Of a stretch of 35,486 bases of DNA, positions 946-28,055 are shown in pieces. How positions within the stretch are numbered: position 1 is the first letter of the stretch; each line of letters opens with the position of its first letter. The notes beneath the pieces were generated by a model. That model was given only the letters and a program-made list of their open reading frames with translations. It ran no database searches and was not told the DNA's origin. The stretch is from a virus (lineage: Duplodnaviria; Caudoviricetes), in the IMG/VR virus record IMGVR_UViG_3300020043_002456, positions 1-35,486 of that record; one strand, given 5' to 3'. The translations under genes and the position numbers were made by a program.

Positions 946-1627
946 TCTTTTTTTCGGCTATGGTGTAATCAACTGTACTTGAACAGTTAAGTTGAAAGTA
1001 TTGCACATTACGCATCCCTTGTTGCTGTTGCATGTTTAAGCTATCAACAACTATTTTGTTTACCCCTAATATCTCATTCAAAAATCTTGATGTTACATTC
1101 AATGCCACAGGAGCCGATGCGTATGCCTTAATCAACCTCGCTTCAACATCGGGATATTCATCGGGGTTTTGTGTAGCCACGTAGCCACGTATAGTCAAGT
1201 CAATATCACCTTGTCCGATATACTCCTTAACCGTTCCAACGTGGTCGATTAATTCTGTTTTAATGATATTCTTTACAATAGTTGCATCAATAATAACACC
1301 GTTAAGAAATAGGCCAATAGTGCTATCTGGCGTGTCATTAGTTATGGCCTGCCCTGCGGGTTTATTATAGTCAAGTATGTTAACAGTTTCAACATATTGG
1401 TTTGTAAACTCATTAAACTCGTATGTAGTATAATTAGGCCTTTCAATGAATAGCGTATCGTAAACAGGTGTGCCCAATAAACTTGTTGCATCTGGTGGGT
1501 CTGTTTTAATATTGAAATTCCTTGCTTCAACTATCGCACGTTGCACCAATGGAAGTCCAAAACCCTTTGATAAGGTACGAAAATTTGTCTTTGCTGCCGG
1601 TGATGGTATGTAAAACTTTAAACTCAT
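938..1627 (-). CDS. Tail tube initiator-like protein (DUF6046-like)
   Basis: KNIIKTELIDHVGTVKEYIGQGDIDLTIRG motif; lies between tape measure and hub genes. Confidence 0.6.
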   Translation of the reverse strand: MSLKFYIPSPAAKTNFRTLSKGFGLPLVQRAIVEARNFNIKTDPPDATSLLGTPVYDTLFIERPNYTTYEFNEFTNQYVETVNILDYNKPAGQAITNDTPDSTIGLFLNGVIIDATIVKNIIKTELIDHVGTVKEYIGQGDIDLTIRGYVATQNPDEYPDVEARLIKAYASAPVALNVTSRFLNEILGVNKIVVDSLNMQQQQGMRNVQYFQLNCSSTVDYTIAEKKNV

Positions 1628-3965: not shown

Positions 3966-5513
3966 TTATACTGATTTTACAAATCCAACATTAATTTTAA
4001 TAATTCTTGCAACGCCCAATGGTACATTCTGCAATGTTAATTCCAATGTGCTTGTTGCAAGTACATCCTGCGCAGGATTGATGATAACTTTATGCGCTGA
4101 TAACTCGCCATCGGCTTCCATCTGTACCAATGGGTTATTCGCCAATGTTTCAAAGTACCCTATTGTAGCTGCGGTCAACGTGCCATCTGCATTCACTTTT
4201 AATGGTGAACTTAAAGCAGGTAACATATTGGCACGAACTACACGTGTAATCTTTTGGTAAACACGGTTATTCTCAATAGTTGCATAGTCACTTGTAGGTG
4301 ATACAGTTGTTTTGCTATCGCTCCAATAACTGCCCGTGATGCCTGTTAGCTTGCGCAAGAACACATAAGAGTAATTGTTTAAACTCTCAAATTGACTATC
4401 TGCAAGGGCTGTGTAAACTTCACCGTTGCTGAATGCAATCGTGTCTAACTCTGCACCCAAAGCCATGTTAAACTTGCTCACCCATGCGATTGACTCGCTT
4501 ACAACTGCTAATGAAACAGCACCTAACATTGCACCGATAGCGCCCACTGATTTGTTAGTTGCTTTGTAGATATAATATCCGTTGTTTGCGCCATCCTGTG
4601 CAATACATACCGATACATTTGGAGCAGTTGAGGTAGATAGGTCAACCAATGTTGCCACGCTTGCTGTTGCGCTGATTTCAGCATTCAACATGATTTGCAA
4701 CGGCTTGTAAACGGCTTCGTTAGCGTTTGAGATTGCTTGTAATGCCGATAGTTGAGCGGTGCTAAATGCAACGTTTTTCTCAAATACTGAAATCTGCTTA
4801 ATTGAGCCACTTGCGTAATTCTGCATTGATGTTATTGCAGCAAAGGTATAAGTAGCTTCCTCAACGTATAAACCAACGTACAACTCACCTTTTGGCTGAA
4901 TTCTAAAATACTCGCTAATGTGGTAGTAAAGCGTGTCAATCCATGATGCAATACCTAATACGGTTGAACCGCTGCCTGTTGGCTGTGTCCATGTAGTTGT
5001 AACACCACCACCTGTTACAGTTGATGCGTAAGGAGTGCCACTGTTTGGAAAAATACCCTCACCTGCTTTGGTTGCAATTAATAAATCGGTAGTTGAACCC
5101 GATGCAATGAAACCATGTGTTTGTGTTCCTGCATTGATTGCCGCCCTTAATGCTGTTGCTGCGGTTGTCGCACTTACTGCATCGGCAGTTGTTAATGTAT
5201 AGGTATCAAGCACGGTTTCAACTCCTAAAATGCCTGTATAGGTTATCTTAACGGTGTTGCCTGCTGCAGGTGTTCCACCGATAACCGCCTTTGCAACGGC
5301 TGCCGTTTCGCCCAAGTGATTGCCTGTGATGCCCAAGTTCTCGGCATCTGCTACGGAAAAAATCTTCTTTATTCTGTCGTTTGCTGTGAACCCTGTTGGT
5401 AGTGTTGCACCCGAAGCGTAGTAATGAAGCATCCCGCTGACGTAATCAGTGCCGGGTAACGCTCGGCCTAAACCGCTTGTTGATTTTACAAAATTTATAT
5501 TTGGTAATGCCAT
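3966..5513 (-). CDS. Contractile tail sheath protein (DUF2586-like)
   Basis: MALPNINFVKSTSGLGR start, SDYATIENNRV and VPLGVARIIKINVGF sheath-like C-terminus. Confidence 0.85.
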   Translation of the reverse strand: MALPNINFVKSTSGLGRALPGTDYVSGMLHYYASGATLPTGFTANDRIKKIFSVADAENLGITGNHLGETAAVAKAVIGGTPAAGNTVKITYTGILGVETVLDTYTLTTADAVSATTAATALRAAINAGTQTHGFIASGSTTDLLIATKAGEGIFPNSGTPYASTVTGGGVTTTWTQPTGSGSTVLGIASWIDTLYYHISEYFRIQPKGELYVGLYVEEATYTFAAITSMQNYASGSIKQISVFEKNVAFSTAQLSALQAISNANEAVYKPLQIMLNAEISATASVATLVDLSTSTAPNVSVCIAQDGANNGYYIYKATNKSVGAIGAMLGAVSLAVVSESIAWVSKFNMALGAELDTIAFSNGEVYTALADSQFESLNNYSYVFLRKLTGITGSYWSDSKTTVSPTSDYATIENNRVYQKITRVVRANMLPALSSPLKVNADGTLTAATIGYFETLANNPLVQMEADGELSAHKVIINPAQDVLATSTLELTLQNVPLGVARIIKINVGFVKSV

Positions 5514-11751: not shown

Positions 11752-12215
11752 TTAAAAATCTTATCTAATCGTTTAACAATCACTTTCTTTACTTGCTCAT
11801 TAAGGTTGTAACTATCCCCCATGAATTGGCGTTTGGGCATTTTAAACGTATGCCTGCCCCATGCCCTGCCCATCAAGCCATCATTATGTATTTTCGCATA
11901 GTCTAAATCTGTATGTATCTTAATACTCAACGCTGCTCTGTTTGCGGGGTCACGTATGATTGAACGCTTTAAATCACCCTCTTTAACTAATATTGCCCTT
12001 GTTGTATCATCAACCGTTTTACCGCTTTTCGTTTTATACGTTTTTTTCTTTCTCGGCTTCCACTTCTCAACACTCTTATCATCCCATCCCTGCTTGCGAA
12101 ATGATGACACAAAGAACACCTTGGCCGTGTTACCAACATCAACAATAGCCGCTTCCATTGCCTTGCGGGCTTTCTGCTCCGCTTGTTTTAGGTTGAATTT
12201 ATTGCTCTTTGCCAT
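11748..12215 (-). CDS. Virion morphogenesis / tail completion protein (Mu gpG-like)
   Basis: FRKQGW...KWKPRK, ILVKEGDLKRSI, YAKIHNDG, MPKRQFMGDS motifs; likely start MAKSNKF. Confidence 0.85.
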   Translation of the reverse strand: MAKSNKFNLKQAEQKARKAMEAAIVDVGNTAKVFFVSSFRKQGWDDKSVEKWKPRKKKTYKTKSGKTVDDTTRAILVKEGDLKRSIIRDPANRAALSIKIHTDLDYAKIHNDGLMGRAWGRHTFKMPKRQFMGDSYNLNEQVKKVIVKRLDKIFK

Positions 12216-14038
12216 TATGTCGGTATCGGTAAATTCCAATTCTTTTTAGCCGCTTCTTTGTCACCCTTTGCAATGTCAAAGTAGGGGTGTTTTCCCTTGC
12301 CCCTTTCTTTAAAAACATAGCCATCAATGCCCGCATTCATACGAAACAAGGGCGGTACATCATCGGGCGGTGTAAAGTTGCTCATATCGCTTAATTCCCC
12401 CTCGGATAGTTGTATTACGGTACAACGGCAGTTGCCACACCAATAAATCTTACCATCTCTCATTACAAGCAATGTATTGTGCTTTAAAACCTCAACACAA
12501 TATACCATGCCATAATAATCAATTTCATTTACATGATTTGATTGTATATTGTAATAATTTGAGTGTAAAATATTAATTCTATACATATCGTGATTTGCAG
12601 CGTAACTTCCGTTACGATGCTTAGTTACTTTCCCTTTTGTTGGCACTTTTCTTATTGTGCATGATTTATGTGATTTAATTATTACTTCAGTTAAATCATC
12701 ACACATTTTTTTGGAGCTTGTGTGAATGCAAATATTTTCTTTTCTCATGTAGCCGCTTTCCATAATCTTAGATGCAGTAATATTTCCATCTCCTTTTACA
12801 TACCTGTCCAAAAATAAATCTAAATAACATTTATCGAGTGCCTTTATTTCATTAGGTATAAATTTTTCATAAGATTTACCAAATTGGCTCAAATATAACC
12901 CCAATTCTTTTGAACTTATACCAATATAATCTTTTGCTAAATATGGCGTAAATGGAAAATCTTTTAAGTCATCCCATATTAATACTAAGTGTTTTTTTTC
13001 TGATTGTGATATTTTTATAGCATAAGCATTTTCACTTCTTTTGGTGGTACTTCCCTCTGATAAATACCACCCCATAAACTTTGCAAATTGTTCAGTTCTT
13101 ATGTTTTTGCCCGCTATTTTTATAAAGGCTTTACCGTTGCCCTTCCACTCAGTTGATTTATATACTTGGTCTGATATGGCAACACTTTCAGCATCAATCA
13201 ATTTTAATGTTTTTCTTTTTTTGTGCCTATCCCAACTTTTTCTTACCAACATCTTATGCCCTTCGGTAACAACACAACTAAAATTATTTGCTTTAAATTC
13301 TATCATTTTTCCATCATGAGGGTAAGCAATATAATTTATGGGCTGCTGCCATTCGGGTTGCAATGTTTCTGTATTCAAAGTATAAACTAAATCAGTTTGC
13401 TCCAATTCGTTAAATAACTTCCACCCGTTATTAGTGTAGATACTTGTTTTTTCATCGTAGCAACGCCAACCGTTAGGTGGATAGTATTGCTTCCAAAAGG
13501 GGTCATTGATAGGTCTTATAATGTTGTCAAGTGCTTGATGCGTTGGCCTTACTCTGCCATCACCAACGGTTTGATACTGCAACAACGGCAACACATCGGC
13601 ATCGGCTTCTATACGCTTCCAATCGGATGCCATACGTGCTGATGCTTTCGCAGTTTGGTATTCGGCTTGCAAGTAATCTTCATTGTATAGCTTAAACATC
13701 GGCTTAACTGCTTCTTTAAACTTATAAAAGTTCGATTTCAATTCGGGATCTGCTAACATCGCAGTCATTGTCCGTGTCTGTTGGTACGTTTTCGCTCCGC
13801 TGAATATGTAAATGTTATTGGTTAAGTCCGCAGTTAATACCTCATCAACAACAGGTGCTAAATCAATGCCATCACGTAAGTATTTCGCTGTTTTTAGATA
13901 AATCCCCTCTGGCAACACTTGATTATTAATCGCACCAATCCAAACATCATTCGCAAAACGATTAAAATCATTTTCATCAAACGGTGTTGGTGGGTCAACT
14001 TCCTTATCTATATTCAATATGTCGCAGTAACCGCACAT
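12215..14038 (-). CDS. Head morphogenesis protein (MuF / SPP1 gp7 family) containing an intein
   Basis: YQTVGDGRVRPTH...DPFWKQYYPPNGWR | CRCTV motif split by a 344 aa insert; spliced product 263 aa. Confidence 0.92.
   Translation of the reverse strand: MCGYCDILNIDKEVDPPTPFDENDFNRFANDVWIGAINNQVLPEGIYLKTAKYLRDGIDLAPVVDEVLTADLTNNIYIFSGAKTYQQTRTMTAMLADPELKSNFYKFKEAVKPMFKLYNEDYLQAEYQTAKASARMASDWKRIEADADVLPLLQYQTVGDGRVRPTHQALDNIIRPINDPFWKQYYPPNGWRCYDEKTSIYTNNGWKLFNELEQTDLVYTLNTETLQPEWQQPINYIAYPHDGKMIEFKANNFSCVVTEGHKMLVRKSWDRHKKRKTLKLIDAESVAISDQVYKSTEWKGNGKAFIKIAGKNIRTEQFAKFMGWYLSEGSTTKRSENAYAIKISQSEKKHLVLIWDDLKDFPFTPYLAKDYIGISSKELGLYLSQFGKSYEKFIPNEIKALDKCYLDLFLDRYVKGDGNITASKIMESGYMRKENICIHTSSKKMCDDLTEVIIKSHKSCTIRKVPTKGKVTKHRNGSYAANHDMYRINILHSNYYNIQSNHVNEIDYYGMVYCVEVLKHNTLLVMRDGKIYWCGNCRCTVIQLSEGELSDMSNFTPPDDVPPLFRMNAGIDGYVFKERGKGKHPYFDIAKGDKEAAKKNWNLPIPT
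12431..13462 (-). mobile_element. Intein with LAGLIDADG homing endonuclease
   Basis: C1 (CYDEKTSIYTNNGWK), block B VTEGH, endonuclease blocks FMGWYLSEGS and FLDRYVKGDG, block F VYCVEV, C-terminal WCGN followed by Cys+1; visibly more AT-rich than flanks. Confidence 0.92.
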
Positions 14039-23021: not shown

Positions 23022-23040
23022 AGGTTATTGTTTTTAGTTG

Positions 23041-23358
23041 TTAAAATAAATCATTATTCGATGTTGTAGTCAACGGCACATTCTCTGTCCTGTCAATCTT
23101 CCAACCCTCAATGGAGTTGAAGTACTTAACGCTGCCATCCTTGCCTTGGTATTGTTTACCTCGTAAGTTGTAGCATACGGTCACGTTATCGCCAACCATG
23201 TACTTGTCAAGCATTGGGCATCTGTCCTGTGTGAATTGCACCGTAATGTGTTGTGGGTACTTGTCGGCTACGGTGATGACCATCTCACGCTTTGCGAAGT
23301 TGTCGCTAACTTGTTGCGTGTTGTAAAGTTCTCGGATTGTTCCTGTGATTGTGTTCAT
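23041..23358 (-). CDS. SSB-like OB-fold protein (DUF3127-like)
   Basis: FAKREMVI, KYPQHITVQFTQD, YFNSIEGWKI, acidic tail NDLF. Confidence 0.85.
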   Translation of the reverse strand: MNTITGTIRELYNTQQVSDNFAKREMVITVADKYPQHITVQFTQDRCPMLDKYMVGDNVTVCYNLRGKQYQGKDGSVKYFNSIEGWKIDRTENVPLTTTSNNDLF

Positions 23359-23363
23359 TGTTT

Positions 23364-23633
23364 TTAATTGTTTAAATTGATTAGTATTTCAGTTAGTAAT
23401 GCTTCGGGTAACGCATCGAATTGTTCCGATGTATATTTATACTCATGCTCTGTCCATTGCTCACCATTTGGATTGCTGTAATGCTTTGCAACCGCTTCGT
23501 AGGTGATATTGATGTCATTGTAATTAAAATGCTCGCATATCGCATCTAATAACGCCCACGGTAATGACTCGGCATCATCGGACAATTCAATGATTTCATT
23601 GTCGCTGTTGAATTTGATTATAATTTCTTTCAT
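23364..23633 (-). CDS. Hypothetical acidic protein
   Basis: 89 aa ORF, ATGA overlap with upstream gene. Confidence 0.65.
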   Translation of the reverse strand: MKEIIIKFNSDNEIIELSDDAESLPWALLDAICEHFNYNDINITYEAVAKHYSNPNGEQWTEHEYKYTSEQFDALPEALLTEILINLNN

Positions 23634-24396: not shown

Positions 24397-24717
24397 TTAA
24401 TTTAAAACTATACCTGCTTGCAATAAGCATTGCTCAATTTCATCAATTCCTTTTTTGCCAATATGCCTAAAATTGCGCAAATCGGCTTTCGTATAATTTT
24501 TTAAATCACCAAGTTTATTAATATTATTTTGTTTCATAATATTAGTAATTTTAGAGCACAAACCTGCGTCATAAATATAAGTATTTTCATCCAAAATCAA
24601 ATGAGTAAACTTCTTATCATCCAATGCTGCTTTCATTCTATCAAGTTGCAAATAAACTTGTTTTTTATAATTGTTAACTGTTTCTATTGCTTTTAAAAAT
24701 TCTTCTTCTGTTATCAT
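24397..24717 (-). CDS. RNA polymerase alpha-CTD-like protein
   Basis: GLCSKITNIMKQNNINKLGDLKNYTKADLRNFRHIGKKGIDEIEQCL matches the alpha-CTD pattern (LSxRxxNxL...I..IGDL...DL......GxKSxxEI). Confidence 0.8.
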   Translation of the reverse strand: MITEEEFLKAIETVNNYKKQVYLQLDRMKAALDDKKFTHLILDENTYIYDAGLCSKITNIMKQNNINKLGDLKNYTKADLRNFRHIGKKGIDEIEQCLLQAGIVLN

Positions 24718-24737
24718 TTTTTATTAATTTTTAAAGG

Positions 24738-25079
24738 TTACACCTCACTCATTATAGTCACCACTCGTCTACCCGACAACATTGCCAATTCAACATTCTG
24801 CTTTATCCTGTTTCGGAACGCTTCGGCTTGGTGTACGCTTGTGAAGTCATCATCTAACTTTGACACTTTGCGCTTTAACCTTTCGACAACATCGCTGATA
24901 ATATCAACTACATCGTGAACAGTTGTGTTGTGTACCATTGCGATTTCAGTGGTAGTTAATCCGTTGTTGTATTGAAGCCACATATCCCAATGTTGAGGTT
25001 GAATGGTTGCCGGTCGGATGCTATCCCGGTACGCATCGGACACCACTCGGATTGCTTTCCTTGTTTTAGGTTTAGCCAT
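24738..25079 (-). CDS. HTH DNA-binding protein (sigma region-4-like)
   Basis: YNNGLTTTEIAMVHNTTVHDVVDIISDVVERLKRK. Confidence 0.55.
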   Translation of the reverse strand: MAKPKTRKAIRVVSDAYRDSIRPATIQPQHWDMWLQYNNGLTTTEIAMVHNTTVHDVVDIISDVVERLKRKVSKLDDDFTSVHQAEAFRNRIKQNVELAMLSGRRVVTIMSEV

Positions 25080-25266: not shown

Positions 25267-25325
25267 AGGTTTTATTGTTGTATAAGCGTTAATAATTAGC
25301 GGGTAGCGGGTAGTTAGCGGTAATA

Positions 25326-25989
25326 CTACCCGAAATCAAGAACTGTCTGCGAAATAAAATTTTTGAACCTTGCTTCCTGTGTTTCATAGTATCGTTTATC
25401 TATTTCACATCCCACAAAATGCAACTTTCTCTTGTGTGCTGAAATCCGACTGCTTCCGCTGCCCAAATGGGTATCTAAAATCAAATTTCCACGCTCACAA
25501 AATCGGTTAAAAATCCAGTCGTATAAATAAATCGGCTTTTGCGTTAGCACCAACCCAACTCTTGGTTATTTTTCGTAACGCTCCATTATAACTTGTCCAA
25601 GCCAATTCACCGTCTGCAAAGTCATTATCGCCTGTTCCTTTATCCCAAAATAACCAAGCTCCTGTTGGCTTAAGGTATTCAGTCATATAATTTCCACCCC
25701 ACACAATTTGATTTTTAGATACCCGAAACAACTGCTCCCAATATTCAGCAGTCGGAATAGCATTATCCCAATCGTTTTCGCCTCTGTATATTTTCTTCTT
25801 ACCATTGCCAAGTTGCATTTTGTTTGCTCCAATTCCATAAGGAGGGTCAACAACAGCAAGGTCAAAAATTTTATCAGGGTACTGTTTCATAATAGCGATA
25901 CAGTCGTAATTAAACACCGTACTACCGCTAACATCGGGTATAACCAATAGCGGGTTTTCTGCTGTGTTCAAAGTTTCGTTCTCGTTCAT
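25326..25989 (-). pseudogene. N6A/N4C DNA methyltransferase (beta class), frameshifted
   Basis: DLAVVDPPYG in 25507-25989; TQKP..LY, ILDTHLGSGSS, GCEID in 25326-25553; frames meet at AACGCAAAAG (25536-25545) and the usual HP before TQKP is missing. Confidence 0.85.
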
Positions 25990-26056
25990 ATTTTTATCTA
26001 TATTTTTAAATTTGTTCTTCGTATTCCGCTACTGGTCATACCCGCAGCCGTTATGC
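25926..26056 (+). repeat. attC-like site 1
   Basis: TAAC-AT-CGGGTATAACCAATAGCGG ... CCGCTACTGGTCATACCCG-CAGCC-GTTA. Confidence 0.85.
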
Positions 26057-26062
26057 GAGATG

Positions 26063-26959
26063 CTACGAACCACACTCCGAAAAGACCTCACAGCTATCAC
26101 CACCGAGTAAGTCAATTTGATATGAATATTCATCAGCATCATTTTTTATTATTCCATTCCAATTCTTTGCTTCTTCAAGTATCTGTTTTGCACTTCTGTT
26201 GTTTCTAAAAAAAGTAATGTCTTTTGGTAGTTCCTTTCCTTCTTTTATCCATTTTTCAATTCTTTGTGGTGGGAAAAAGTTTCCATACTTTTCTTCCATC
26301 TTATCCATAAATTCAAAAAACTTCGGTGTTTCTTTCGCAATTTGGTATAGCTTCTTATCTGCTTTTTTCCAACAAGTCTTGCAGTTCCCTTGATAGCCTT
26401 TCAACTCTAATCTAAAAGGCATTGAACGCCAATAAAAATTAATCATCGGCTTTGAAGCAGGTATCATTTTTCTATTTATCAACGGATAAATAAACCCCAT
26501 TTGTTTAGCCTTTGCATTCATTCTATCTGCTTCATCAATCCTTATTCCTATTGCGGTGTGGTATTTTTCGCCATTAAACCAATCTTTACCAAACGCTGAA
26601 ATAGGAGCACCTTTTAATTCTCTTGTGCATTGTGGGTTGGCTTGGTTTGGTATTCCATACTTTGAAATCATTTGCTCAAATGGTTCTCCATTCCTACTTG
26701 CATTATCAAAGTCGGTTCTATAATACCTTGTGCCTTTTCTATATTCGTGTATTACATCGGCTTCAATCCATTGTATGTTTAGTTTGAAATGCTTATCACA
26801 TTGCTCTACAAATTCAAGAGTTTCCTCGTTTTCTTGTCCTGTGTTTGCAAATACAAATACTATGTTTTCATAGCCATATTCCTCATAGTGGTTATTAAGC
26901 CATTGAGCCATAAATGCTGATGTTTCGCCACCAGAAAACGATACTAATAAATTCTTCAT
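26063..26959 (-). CDS. PAPS reductase / adenine nucleotide alpha-hydrolase family protein
   Basis: VSFSGGETS PP-loop, FANTGQENEETL, CTRELK, GIRIDE, YPL, GNCKTCWKK. Confidence 0.85.
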   Translation of the reverse strand: MKNLLVSFSGGETSAFMAQWLNNHYEEYGYENIVFVFANTGQENEETLEFVEQCDKHFKLNIQWIEADVIHEYRKGTRYYRTDFDNASRNGEPFEQMISKYGIPNQANPQCTRELKGAPISAFGKDWFNGEKYHTAIGIRIDEADRMNAKAKQMGFIYPLINRKMIPASKPMINFYWRSMPFRLELKGYQGNCKTCWKKADKKLYQIAKETPKFFEFMDKMEEKYGNFFPPQRIEKWIKEGKELPKDITFFRNNRSAKQILEEAKNWNGIIKNDADEYSYQIDLLGGDSCEVFSECGS

Positions 26960-26994
26960 CCTAATTAAAATTTGAGTTAAGAAAGAAGCACCTC

Positions 26995-27126
26995 GCATAA
27001 CAGCACCTAACCAAAAGCAGGGGTTTACTGCTCCTAAGAAAGTTTTGTGCTATATTTAAGTTCTGTATTTCGTTCATAATTTTGTGGTTAAATTCCCTGC
27101 CTTCGGTTAGCTGCATCACGTTATAA
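26995..27126 (+). repeat. attC-like site 2
   Basis: TAAC-A-GCACCTAACCAAAAGCAGGG ... CCCTGCCTTCGGTTAGCTGC-ATCAC-GTTA. Confidence 0.85.
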
Positions 27127-27130
27127 GAAA

Positions 27131-27217
27131 TGGGGGGTGTAGCGGATTCTCGAGCCTCCCCAGCTACAGTCGGAGTTACGGTTGCGACCCGTTCAGTTTG
27201 CGTTCTAAATCCCCCCA
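27131..27217 (-). ncRNA. Candidate structured ncRNA forming the whole body of cassette 3
   Basis: GGGGGG/CCCCCC closing stem ending CCA, inner stems TTTAG/CTGAA, CGG/CCG, TGTAGC/GCTACA; GC-rich; no credible ORF. Confidence 0.5.
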
Positions 27218-27222
27218 CTATC

Positions 27223-27345
27223 TTATAACAGCAAATATGCGAAATAACCAGTACAATAACCAACTTCCTCGTCTAACCCCGAACATAGGTTATTATTTTT
27301 CGGGTTTGGCGGTCGGTTACTTCGCATATTTGCAAAACGTTATAA
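27223..27345 (+). repeat. attC-like site 3
   Basis: TAAC-A-GCAAATATGCGAAATAACC ... GGTTACTTCGCATATTTGC-AAAAC-GTTA. Confidence 0.85.
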
Positions 27346-27351
27346 GCAACC

Positions 27352-27564
27352 TTACAAAGACTGCAACTCCGACTTGACATCATTCCAATATTTATTATAT
27401 TCAAATTGACTATCTGTTATAGCAGGTCTTGAATTTATGATTTCTTTGACAGCTATTAATGCACAATTTTTAGCAAATTCTTTATTTATTTTGCCTCCCC
27501 AATAACCACCGCATAATGGTTTGTATTTATCTACTAATTCAGTAGCTTTTTCTTTTGCGTTCAT
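27352..27564 (-). CDS. Hypothetical protein, cassette 4 cargo
   Basis: MNAKEKATELVDKY...AKNCALIAVKEII...YWNDVKSEL; stop codon about 10 nt from the GTT boundary. Confidence 0.75.
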   Translation of the reverse strand: MNAKEKATELVDKYKPLCGGYWGGKINKEFAKNCALIAVKEIINSRPAITDSQFEYNKYWNDVKSELQSL

Positions 27565-27601
27565 ATTATTGTTTTTAAATTAAATTAGTAATAAAGGCAG
27601 C

Positions 27602-27656
27602 GTATAACAGCACCTATGCGCCATTAAAACGACCGCCAATCTGCAATCCGTTACCT
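27602..27656 (+). repeat. attC-like site 4 (short, arms mismatched)
   Basis: TAAC-A-GCA...TGC-AATCC-GTTA outer frame present, inner arms CCTATGCG vs CGCCAATC do not pair. Confidence 0.65.
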
Positions 27657-27673
27657 GTAATTGTAAATTTTTA

Positions 27674-27898
27674 TTAAACATTTTCCCCTCCAAAAATCAA
27701 ATAAATTTTAAATGATACTTCCTGTTTTTCACTATATTGGTATCTTCCAAATTCTCCAAAAATTTCATCTCCAAATTTAGATGCAAATTCGTGCTTATCA
27801 TTATCATCAATTGGCGGTGTTATCAATCCAACTTTTGTACAATCTTCAATAAATTTTACGATGCAATTCACTTCATCGTTTGTCATTCCATTTTTCAT
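27674..27898 (-). CDS. Hypothetical protein, cassette 5 cargo
   Basis: 74 aa AT-rich ORF filling the cassette. Confidence 0.65.
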   Translation of the reverse strand: MKNGMTNDEVNCIVKFIEDCTKVGLITPPIDDNDKHEFASKFGDEIFGEFGRYQYSEKQEVSFKIYLIFGGENV

Positions 27899-27981
27899 AT
27901 TAATTAATTTAAAATTTGCCTACGCTAAAAATGTTTAATAAAAATTTACAACTGGCTTACGCTAAAAATCCCACCGCACAC

Positions 27982-28055
27982 AGGCAACAGCACATACACG
28001 CTATTTCCCCTCCCTCAATCCAACGCTCACAGCGTGTATCTGCATCACGTTAATC
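27982..28055 (+). repeat. attC-like site 5
   Basis: CAAC-A-GCACATACACGCT ... AGCGTGTATCTGC-ATCAC-GTTA. Confidence 0.8.

Follow-up and report, generated by a model that had tools for sequence, protein, structure and literature searches.

The stretch of DNA considered here raises a simple question: what is carried by a gene-free element that lies between two hairpin sites in a phage genome? The window, by which the whole stretch analysed is meant, is a whole virus record of 35,486 bases, with capsid, terminase and primase genes present. Nine of the ten terminase matches listed belong to Flavobacterium phages, at 31-32% identity. In a blastn search of 72,556 plasmid records, one of the hairpin sites (site 4 below) was matched at 72-76% in eight records, seven of them from named Bacteroidota genera; the gene-free insert was not matched there, site 4 alone being found. 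Together, the terminase and plasmid matches make a Bacteroidota host likely. Elsewhere in the genome, a head-morphogenesis-like gene (12215-14038, minus strand) carries a large in-frame insertion between C and HN-rich motifs, which looks intein-like by eye.

The element forms part of an array of cassettes, whose features are as follows.

25313-28052, minus strand: the whole cassette array, with five hairpin sites, ending at a conserved TAAC motif (25313-25316)
27985-28052, 27605-27653, 27226-27342, 26998-27123 and 25929-26053, minus strand: the five hairpin sites of the array
27352-27564, minus strand: the previous cassette gene, 70 amino acids, no Pfam family
27120-27342, minus strand: the mobile unit, extending between successive TAAC cores and made up of hairpin site 3 and the gene-free insert
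27226-27342, minus strand: hairpin site 3, attC-like, an inverted repeat with a DNA fold z of -5.74; part of the mobile unit
27120-27229, minus strand: the gene-free cargo, the element singled out by the first-pass annotation, with complementary ends (a GTTA end and a TAAC end)
26998-27123, minus strand: hairpin site 4, attC-like, heading the next cassette, with an AT-rich loop and a DNA fold z of -3.04
26063-26998, minus strand: the next cassette gene, a PAPS reductase domain protein of 311 amino acids as listed (PF01507, E 1.2e-7)

Each site spans from a TAAC core to a GTT core, and small genes with complementary ends lie between the sites. Close relatives of this region were found via a flanking protein at 88-96% identity, and 10 of the 12 loci reach the array. 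In these ten relatives the flanks are common (mostly 85-96% alignment) and the arrays differ, their length ranging from 385 to 3165 bases in the nine with both ends. The PAPS reductase cassette gene has a 77% DNA match within the array of locus L012. Hairpin sites with AAC and GTT cores, complementary cassette ends, matches that end at or a few bases from the TAAC cores, and arrays that vary among relatives were thus all found. Judged by its sequence, the array behaves in an integron-like manner; to call it an integron would go a step beyond the evidence. No tyrosine recombinase (PF00589) was detected in this record. Such a gene is present in 5 of the 50 related records, and in three of the 50 it lies within about 2 kb of the retrieving site. 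Scored against TIGR02249, the model for IntI with a cut-off of 265, these three neighbours of related arrays reach 136-155 bits; no IntI above that cut-off was found in the record or among the three.

The array has several other peculiarities. The region is rich in methyltransferase-like genes, as identified by motif. One cassette (25326-25989, minus strand) holds a DPPY motif, presumably that of a DNA methyltransferase-like protein, and is split into two overlapping frames that start inside site 5; intact-looking relatives of it occur in L010 and L013. A perfect 24-base inverted repeat (27661-27684 and 27928-27951) surrounds a 74-amino-acid gene inside that gene's own cassette. In L007 (about 4680-5200), a 129-amino-acid ORF, endonuclease-like by eye, sits inside the loop of a short site type. 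Other small variable insertions are seen in L007-L016 outside the main array, around window positions 24400-24740 and 23040-23400.

The first-pass annotation had described a mobile, ORF-free cassette at 27121-27229. Its letters and coordinates are as quoted, it lies between two TAAC...GTTA hairpin sites and is free of genes, and its mobility was borne out by recurrence in other contexts and by the array differences among relatives. The boundaries, on the other hand, had to be redrawn: what moves is 27120-27342, which includes the upstream site with a second ORF-free loop. The unit recurs almost unchanged, beside other neighbours, in three of four lake runs. It shows no differences in run X1 and two in X3, with contigs that continue into other sequence on both sides; in X4, positions 27134-27342 are present with two differences, and X2 holds a part only. 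Run X1 could be the source sample of the record, but its contig nonetheless has other neighbours. The unit is absent from all ten related arrays. On the strength of this recurrence and this absence, the mobile unit is site 3 together with the insert.

Small proteins were considered as cargo and rejected. On the plus strand, the 32-codon ORF of the insert is broken in homologues; the open frame of the minus strand lacks a start codon within the insert and falls out of register across homologues. The second ORF-free insert, the loop of site 3 (about 27251-27315), has 45% GC. By eye, a hairpin is seen on its minus strand, and pairing of the hairpin loop with bases further downstream could give a pseudoknot. 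It is present in runs X5, X6, X7 and X15, and no homologue of it was seen in the fetched loci or the 50 related records. Run X5 also shows the arms of site 3 around a different, 77-base loop, and a scan with these arms returned four loci, none with the site-3 loop.

The origin of the cargo can be addressed through its homologues. Within the cargo, the insert proper is delimited as follows.

27132-27216, minus strand: the insert, 85 bases, closed by a run of six G (27211-27216) and a run of six C (27132-27137)

Its GC content is 60%, against 39% for the whole record. Homologues with 76-79% identity were found at L173/L218, L188/L221 and L223, and in each of these the sequence forms the 82-base loop of an intact site. 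In run X6 a copy with four differences and one gap is bordered by loose ends whose letters read as an intact site's two outer halves. A left loose end of this sort also occurs in run X7, alongside cargo-form contigs. The cargo form is seen in the window and in runs X1, X3, X4, X7 and X15. Thus, the same insert sequence occupies either slot, site loop or cargo.

The end motifs point in the same direction. A scan with the loop-form motif gave 73 loci, with 66 of the 73 in intact sites and 65 of the 73 with interiors of 81-84 bases; the earlier cargo-form pattern excluded the loop form, and none of its seven matches lay in an intact site. Related arrays have sites whose inner arms the ends of the insert resemble. 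The same end motifs enclose five further, unrelated inserts, 84-94 bases long and each lying between two sites; one of the five recurs in four arrays. The metagenome end-motif scan covered 41 of 64 parts, and six of its 118 loci showed a cassette context with a continued stem, the others being treated as chance. Half of the six matches of a further scan were chance (L219, L220, L222), and L223 was among the rest. A search of the 50 related records yielded no homologue of the insert beyond the three known. Exact probes of 16-17 bases from the insert gave only unrelated matches in IMG/VR (three and two loci), blastn against 50,697 phage records matched neither the insert nor L223, and two end-motif scans of GTDB genomes, made with the cargo-form and not the loop-form motifs, returned nothing.

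The cargo form is likely a captured site loop. The direction from loop to cargo is read from these sequences because the loop form is more diverse and because the length and ends of the insert are those of the loop class. The left end of the cargo differs from the loop form by a few letters, which a clean exchange does not explain. As a mechanism, we consider it very probable that the loop would become cargo via an exchange between the outer box of one site and the inner, L-like box of another. Such a two-strand exchange would produce a small circle composed of two hairpin tips and able to insert like any cassette, and a circle of this kind is what the excised unit 27120-27342 would be. The recombinase would act in trans and would be an Xer-like tyrosine recombinase such as those encoded next to related arrays. 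In class 1 integrons, recombination at the L box is rare for IntI1, at 1/607 and 3/642 in the accessible part of the source (PMC4792948). One 84-base cargo occurs in four arrays (L046, L062, L112 and L138) behind four different site loops, and the L138 copy has compensatory changes in the closing stem and one inner helix.

What the insert encodes, if anything, is a separate matter. In the first-pass annotation it had been taken for a tRNA-like RNA with a CCA end and a T-loop-like segment, though not a canonical cloverleaf, and a decoy against anticodon nucleases had been proposed. The absence of a canonical cloverleaf was confirmed, as ARAGORN found no tRNA gene in the insert and Rfam gave no match either at the gathering score or at E up to 10, including the tRNA model RF00005. 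The CCA end could not be upheld. Its C's pair with the run of six G and its A pairs with U, and UUUC continues into the next site; the CCA lies inside a closing stem that extends about 11 more pairs, with no unpaired discriminator or free 3' end. All four homologous copies continue past the CCA region in the same way. There is also no GG in the D-like loop and no 7/5 acceptor branch.

Some features do favour the tRNA reading. At 75% of the threshold, ARAGORN calls a tRNA-Ala(CGC) pseudogene, but 7 of 300 shuffles reach the same, and under relaxed settings the opposite strand too receives a tRNA call. The window copy has a 7-base anticodon-like loop with U33, A37 and A38; position 37 is U in all three homologues, none of which keeps the A37/A38 pair of letters. 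The T-loop-like segment is present in this copy, and a variant at 27154 turns it into the canonical GGUUCGA in runs X2, X3, X4 and X6 (not in X1 or X7), whereas none of the three diverged homologues has it. No homologue gives a sense-strand call even at 60%. The D-like arm is likewise confined to this copy, where it lies in the following segment.

27193-27210, minus strand: A-rich segment at the 5' side, forming the D-like arm here but not in L218, L221 and L223, where the pairing is lost

The segment resembles the 5' start of ordinary AT-rich loops in the same site family. The homologues, then, lose precisely the tRNA-like features, by which the tRNA reading is largely refuted at the level of sequence comparison, and a mimic or decoy aimed at anticodon nucleases appears very improbable.

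Other inserts in these arrays are more tRNA-like, namely those of L140 and L138 and a unit beside L223. The L140 insert (1513-1596, minus strand) is a degenerate long-arm tRNA-like cargo with an intact T arm, scoring 19.9 bits on the Rfam tRNA model against a gathering score of 29. In the site upstream of it, the loop contains a complete ORF of about 70 codons; a gene for a tyrosine recombinase is found at a distance of about 1.1 kb. In L223, a tRNA-like unit at 806-881 is called by ARAGORN at 90% of the threshold, two sites downstream of the insert homologue.

The folding of the insert leads to a different reading. The first-pass annotation had seen a multi-stem junction on the minus strand, and such a fold is indeed predicted, with a z of -3.64 and none of 200 shuffles as stable. 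The 73 bases inside the G and C runs, by contrast, have a z of +0.61, and 219 of 300 shuffles are as stable, in a program that cannot model pseudoknots. The folding signal therefore arises from the closing stem, which is part of the recombination-like site, the interior being no more stable than its shuffles. Within the insert, two structured elements can be proposed.

27178-27192, minus strand: conserved hairpin, the anticodon-like arm, 4 bp with a 7-base loop; one A-U to U-A swap in homologues
27139-27175, minus strand: predicted H-type pseudoknot, from four sequences, three of them close kin

The last two loop bases of the hairpin vary among copies. In the predicted pseudoknot, a 4-bp helix (27172-27175 with 27156-27159) shows a C-G to G-C swap in homologues, and the crossing helix (27163-27167 with 27139-27143) has 5 bp and is invariant in all four sequences. 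The change at 27168 in X6 and X7 breaks a sixth pair of the window's fold and is consistent with the 5-bp helix. The T-loop-like letters fall in the variable last loop of the predicted pseudoknot. The two compensated helices were matched by 329 of 20000 random-substitution controls (p about 0.02), and by 17 of 1000 in a second design, values that reflect four sequences of which three are close and so in effect one comparison, made on 4-bp helices. Three more 4-bp helices containing wobbles were listed, with no double changes. A pairing of the hairpin loop with 27169-27172 is kept in the four copies with one G-C to G-U change; it is not claimed, as there is no double change and the geometry is awkward. 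Blocks of invariant unpaired letters also run across the homologues.

The claim that this is a novel structured non-coding RNA is plausible: the insert is uncatalogued, and the homologues with compensatory changes that such a claim calls for exist, with changes in two helices. Rfam ribozyme and riboswitch models gave no match over the insert in the window, L173 or L188, and hammerhead, twister and HDV cores, compared by eye, did not agree with it. Type III antitoxins come as tandem repeats of 34-60 bases, and ToxI, which belongs to them, is an H-type pseudoknot. The insert has no Rfam match to a type III antitoxin and is a single copy in the record, with no tandem repeats; as modelled, the predicted pseudoknot fits an antitoxin mimic better than a tRNA. 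Overall, the unit is best described as a gene-free integron-like unit, and we give about even credence to the insert being a small RNA payload with a predicted hairpin and pseudoknot, not a tRNA mimic.

It is conceivable instead that the insert is a passenger at the DNA level, a captured loop with no RNA function, in which small GC-rich units recombine easily and inner pairing is kept only to avoid misfolding of the single-stranded site. The position of the folding signal in the site's stem agrees with this, as does the equal folding of both strands as DNA (-19.0 and -18.9 kcal/mol). Units consisting of a 29-base filler exist, and spread from array to array needs no benefit to the phage. The RNA-labelled runs X6 and X15, one of which may be DNA, gave the insert as contigs alone, continuing into neighbouring DNA. 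The invariant unpaired blocks and the tRNA-like inserts in the same slot speak against a mere passenger, and so does the behaviour of the site loops as a class.

These loops fall into two kinds, AT-rich ones, mostly with an ATG, and GC-rich ones of many unrelated families. A unit of at most 180 bases follows the site in 18 of 27 cases for GC-rich loops and in none of 28 for AT-rich loops (two more were too short to score), counts that are not independent, as most AT-rich loops are one family, and that depend on a simple end-finding rule. Ten of the 18 short units are the 29-base filler, found as a cassette after the sites of L145, L152, L161, L174, L187, L209, L210, L212 and L213 plus one copy. 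The middle of this filler matches the loop of the short site type (for example, window 27605-27653) and may be a second case of loop capture. Inner double changes, including some in crossing helices, were seen in five of the six GC-rich families with a diverged pair and in none of three AT-rich pairs (Fisher-combined p 7e-6). Controls reached the observed value in 17, 17, 0, 3 and 84 of 1000 in the five families, where the L151/L153 pair and the upstream loop of L112 were paired by eye; the remaining family, L150/L154, had no double change in 20 differences. Read by eye, the alignment of L152/L165 places four of its six double changes within a crossing helix. The family of L152, L165, L210 and L213 (about 401-503), with six compensatory changes in two crossing helices, is the strongest pseudoknot candidate seen here; those of its members that were scanned had no Rfam match. 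In nested folding, none of 17 GC-rich loops has a coding-strand z below -1.1, and Rfam returned nothing credible in 19 loci with GC-rich loops.

The folding of AT-rich loops is very weak, which suggests that inner pairing is dispensable for recombination. Unpaired loops thus seem enough for the sites, and conserved inner pairing would point to selection acting on the insert itself, for which a role as RNA is the simplest explanation. The sites with AT-rich loops manage in this way, and the DNA-passenger explanation is, to our judgement, a possibility of lesser weight.

If the insert does act as RNA, its production can be outlined. TAnnTTTG is the consensus of Bacteroidota-type promoters; neither this motif nor a sigma-70-like or terminator-like site is present in 27120-27342, and the nearest minus-strand TAnnTTTG matches upstream of the unit are at 27772, 28698 and 28725. 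The unit, having no TAnnTTTG of its own, would be read through from upstream. We lean slightly towards a scheme in which the insert is selected as RNA, whereby the read-through transcript would fold the closing stem of about 18 bp and be cut there by RNase III or a similar double-strand RNase, freeing a closed RNA of about 85-100 bases. RNase III is established to cut long stems in phage transcripts. The released knot could then serve as a decoy for a host RNA-binding defence protein, in the way that the repeats of pseudo-ToxI, carried by phage phiTE, act as decoys against ToxIN. A decoy for a defence protein would be the most plausible role of a knotted RNA of this size in a fast-changing accessory array with many methyltransferase-like genes, although we regard this last step as speculative and rather doubtful.

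The insert could also act in cis on the neighbouring cassette genes, whether as a promoter, a leader or an antiterminator, or as a stabiliser or processing site, a cis-acting role having been shown for gene-less integron cassettes of Vibrio and Treponema. A gene follows directly after the loop form in L173 and L188, and promoter activity, a property that in silico methods predict poorly, was found in most of the gene-less cassettes of Vibrio that were assayed (10.1101/2023.11.21.568050; PMC6557892). Three observations make a cis signal unlikely: none of the promoter- or terminator-like sites searched for occurs in the unit, GC-rich loops mostly head units with no gene of their own, and the neighbours differ from copy to copy. 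The RNA payload remains the reading that we prefer.

A wider proposal is that the site loops of Bacteroidota phages serve as a library of RNAs about 82 bases long, that inner-box recombination makes cassettes of them, and that the RNAs are anti-defence decoys. The library would comprise unrelated small RNAs, several of them pseudoknots and some derived from tRNAs. We put it forward tentatively and think the whole of it improbable as yet; if true, it would mean that a cassette system can carry RNA and would make a natural route of cassette genesis visible. According to the accessible part of one source on the subject, the birth of integron-type cassettes had no reliable model as of 2016, and inner-box recombination of attC was seen only as a rare laboratory event (PMC4792948). 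The occurrence of one insert as both site loop and cargo makes one route of cassette birth testable. If the GC-rich loops are expressed, these arrays would hold uncatalogued small phage RNAs that are discarded as spacer by annotation based on genes or attC sites.

Gene-less cassettes, branched attC loops and attC sites in phages are all already known. The open-access literature, taken without supplements, held nothing on inserts that occur both in a site loop and as cargo, nor on structured loops of fixed length in these arrays; supplements of integron surveys could list such sites. The comparisons below extend as far as the accessible parts of the sources cited. Cassette sites in a phage genome lacking an integrase are common to this array and to the phage-borne attC sites and CALINs of PMC9892861, the main text of which has no occurrence of Bacteroid-, Flavobacter-, tRNA or ORF-less; here, the recombinases near related arrays fall below the IntI cut-off. 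With allo-tRNA/selC* (PMC5389517), the insert shares a length of about 85 bases, a closed stem and, in one copy, a tRNA-like look, but it lacks an 8/4 or 9/3 branch, its T-loop and anticodon loop are not conserved, and its 3' end is not free. The Racr RNA anti-CRISPRs (PMC10651486) and the phiTE pseudo-ToxI are likewise small non-coding phage sequences in an accessory region, whereas the insert is a single copy with no tandem repeat or Rfam match, so the likeness is one of shape only.

The closest parallels come from integrons themselves. Gene-less cassettes are known in Vibrio superintegrons and in Treponema (10.1101/2023.11.21.568050; PMC6557892), and the present unit resembles them as a mobile, gene-free array unit with hairpin sites and complementary ends. 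It differs in that it is found in a phage with no IntI, with the site upstream of the cargo on the coding strand, and in that its cargo is a site loop of fixed length, with inner covariation and no promoter motif found. Branched forms of the attC variable terminal structure (VTS) are known in the VCR sites of Vibrio (PMC2727003), where, as here, a sequence sits atop the inner stem of an attC-like site. In the arrays described here, however, this position is an exchangeable slot of 81-84 bases that accepts unrelated insert families, a whole ORF in the case of L140, and whose occupant is also found as cargo.
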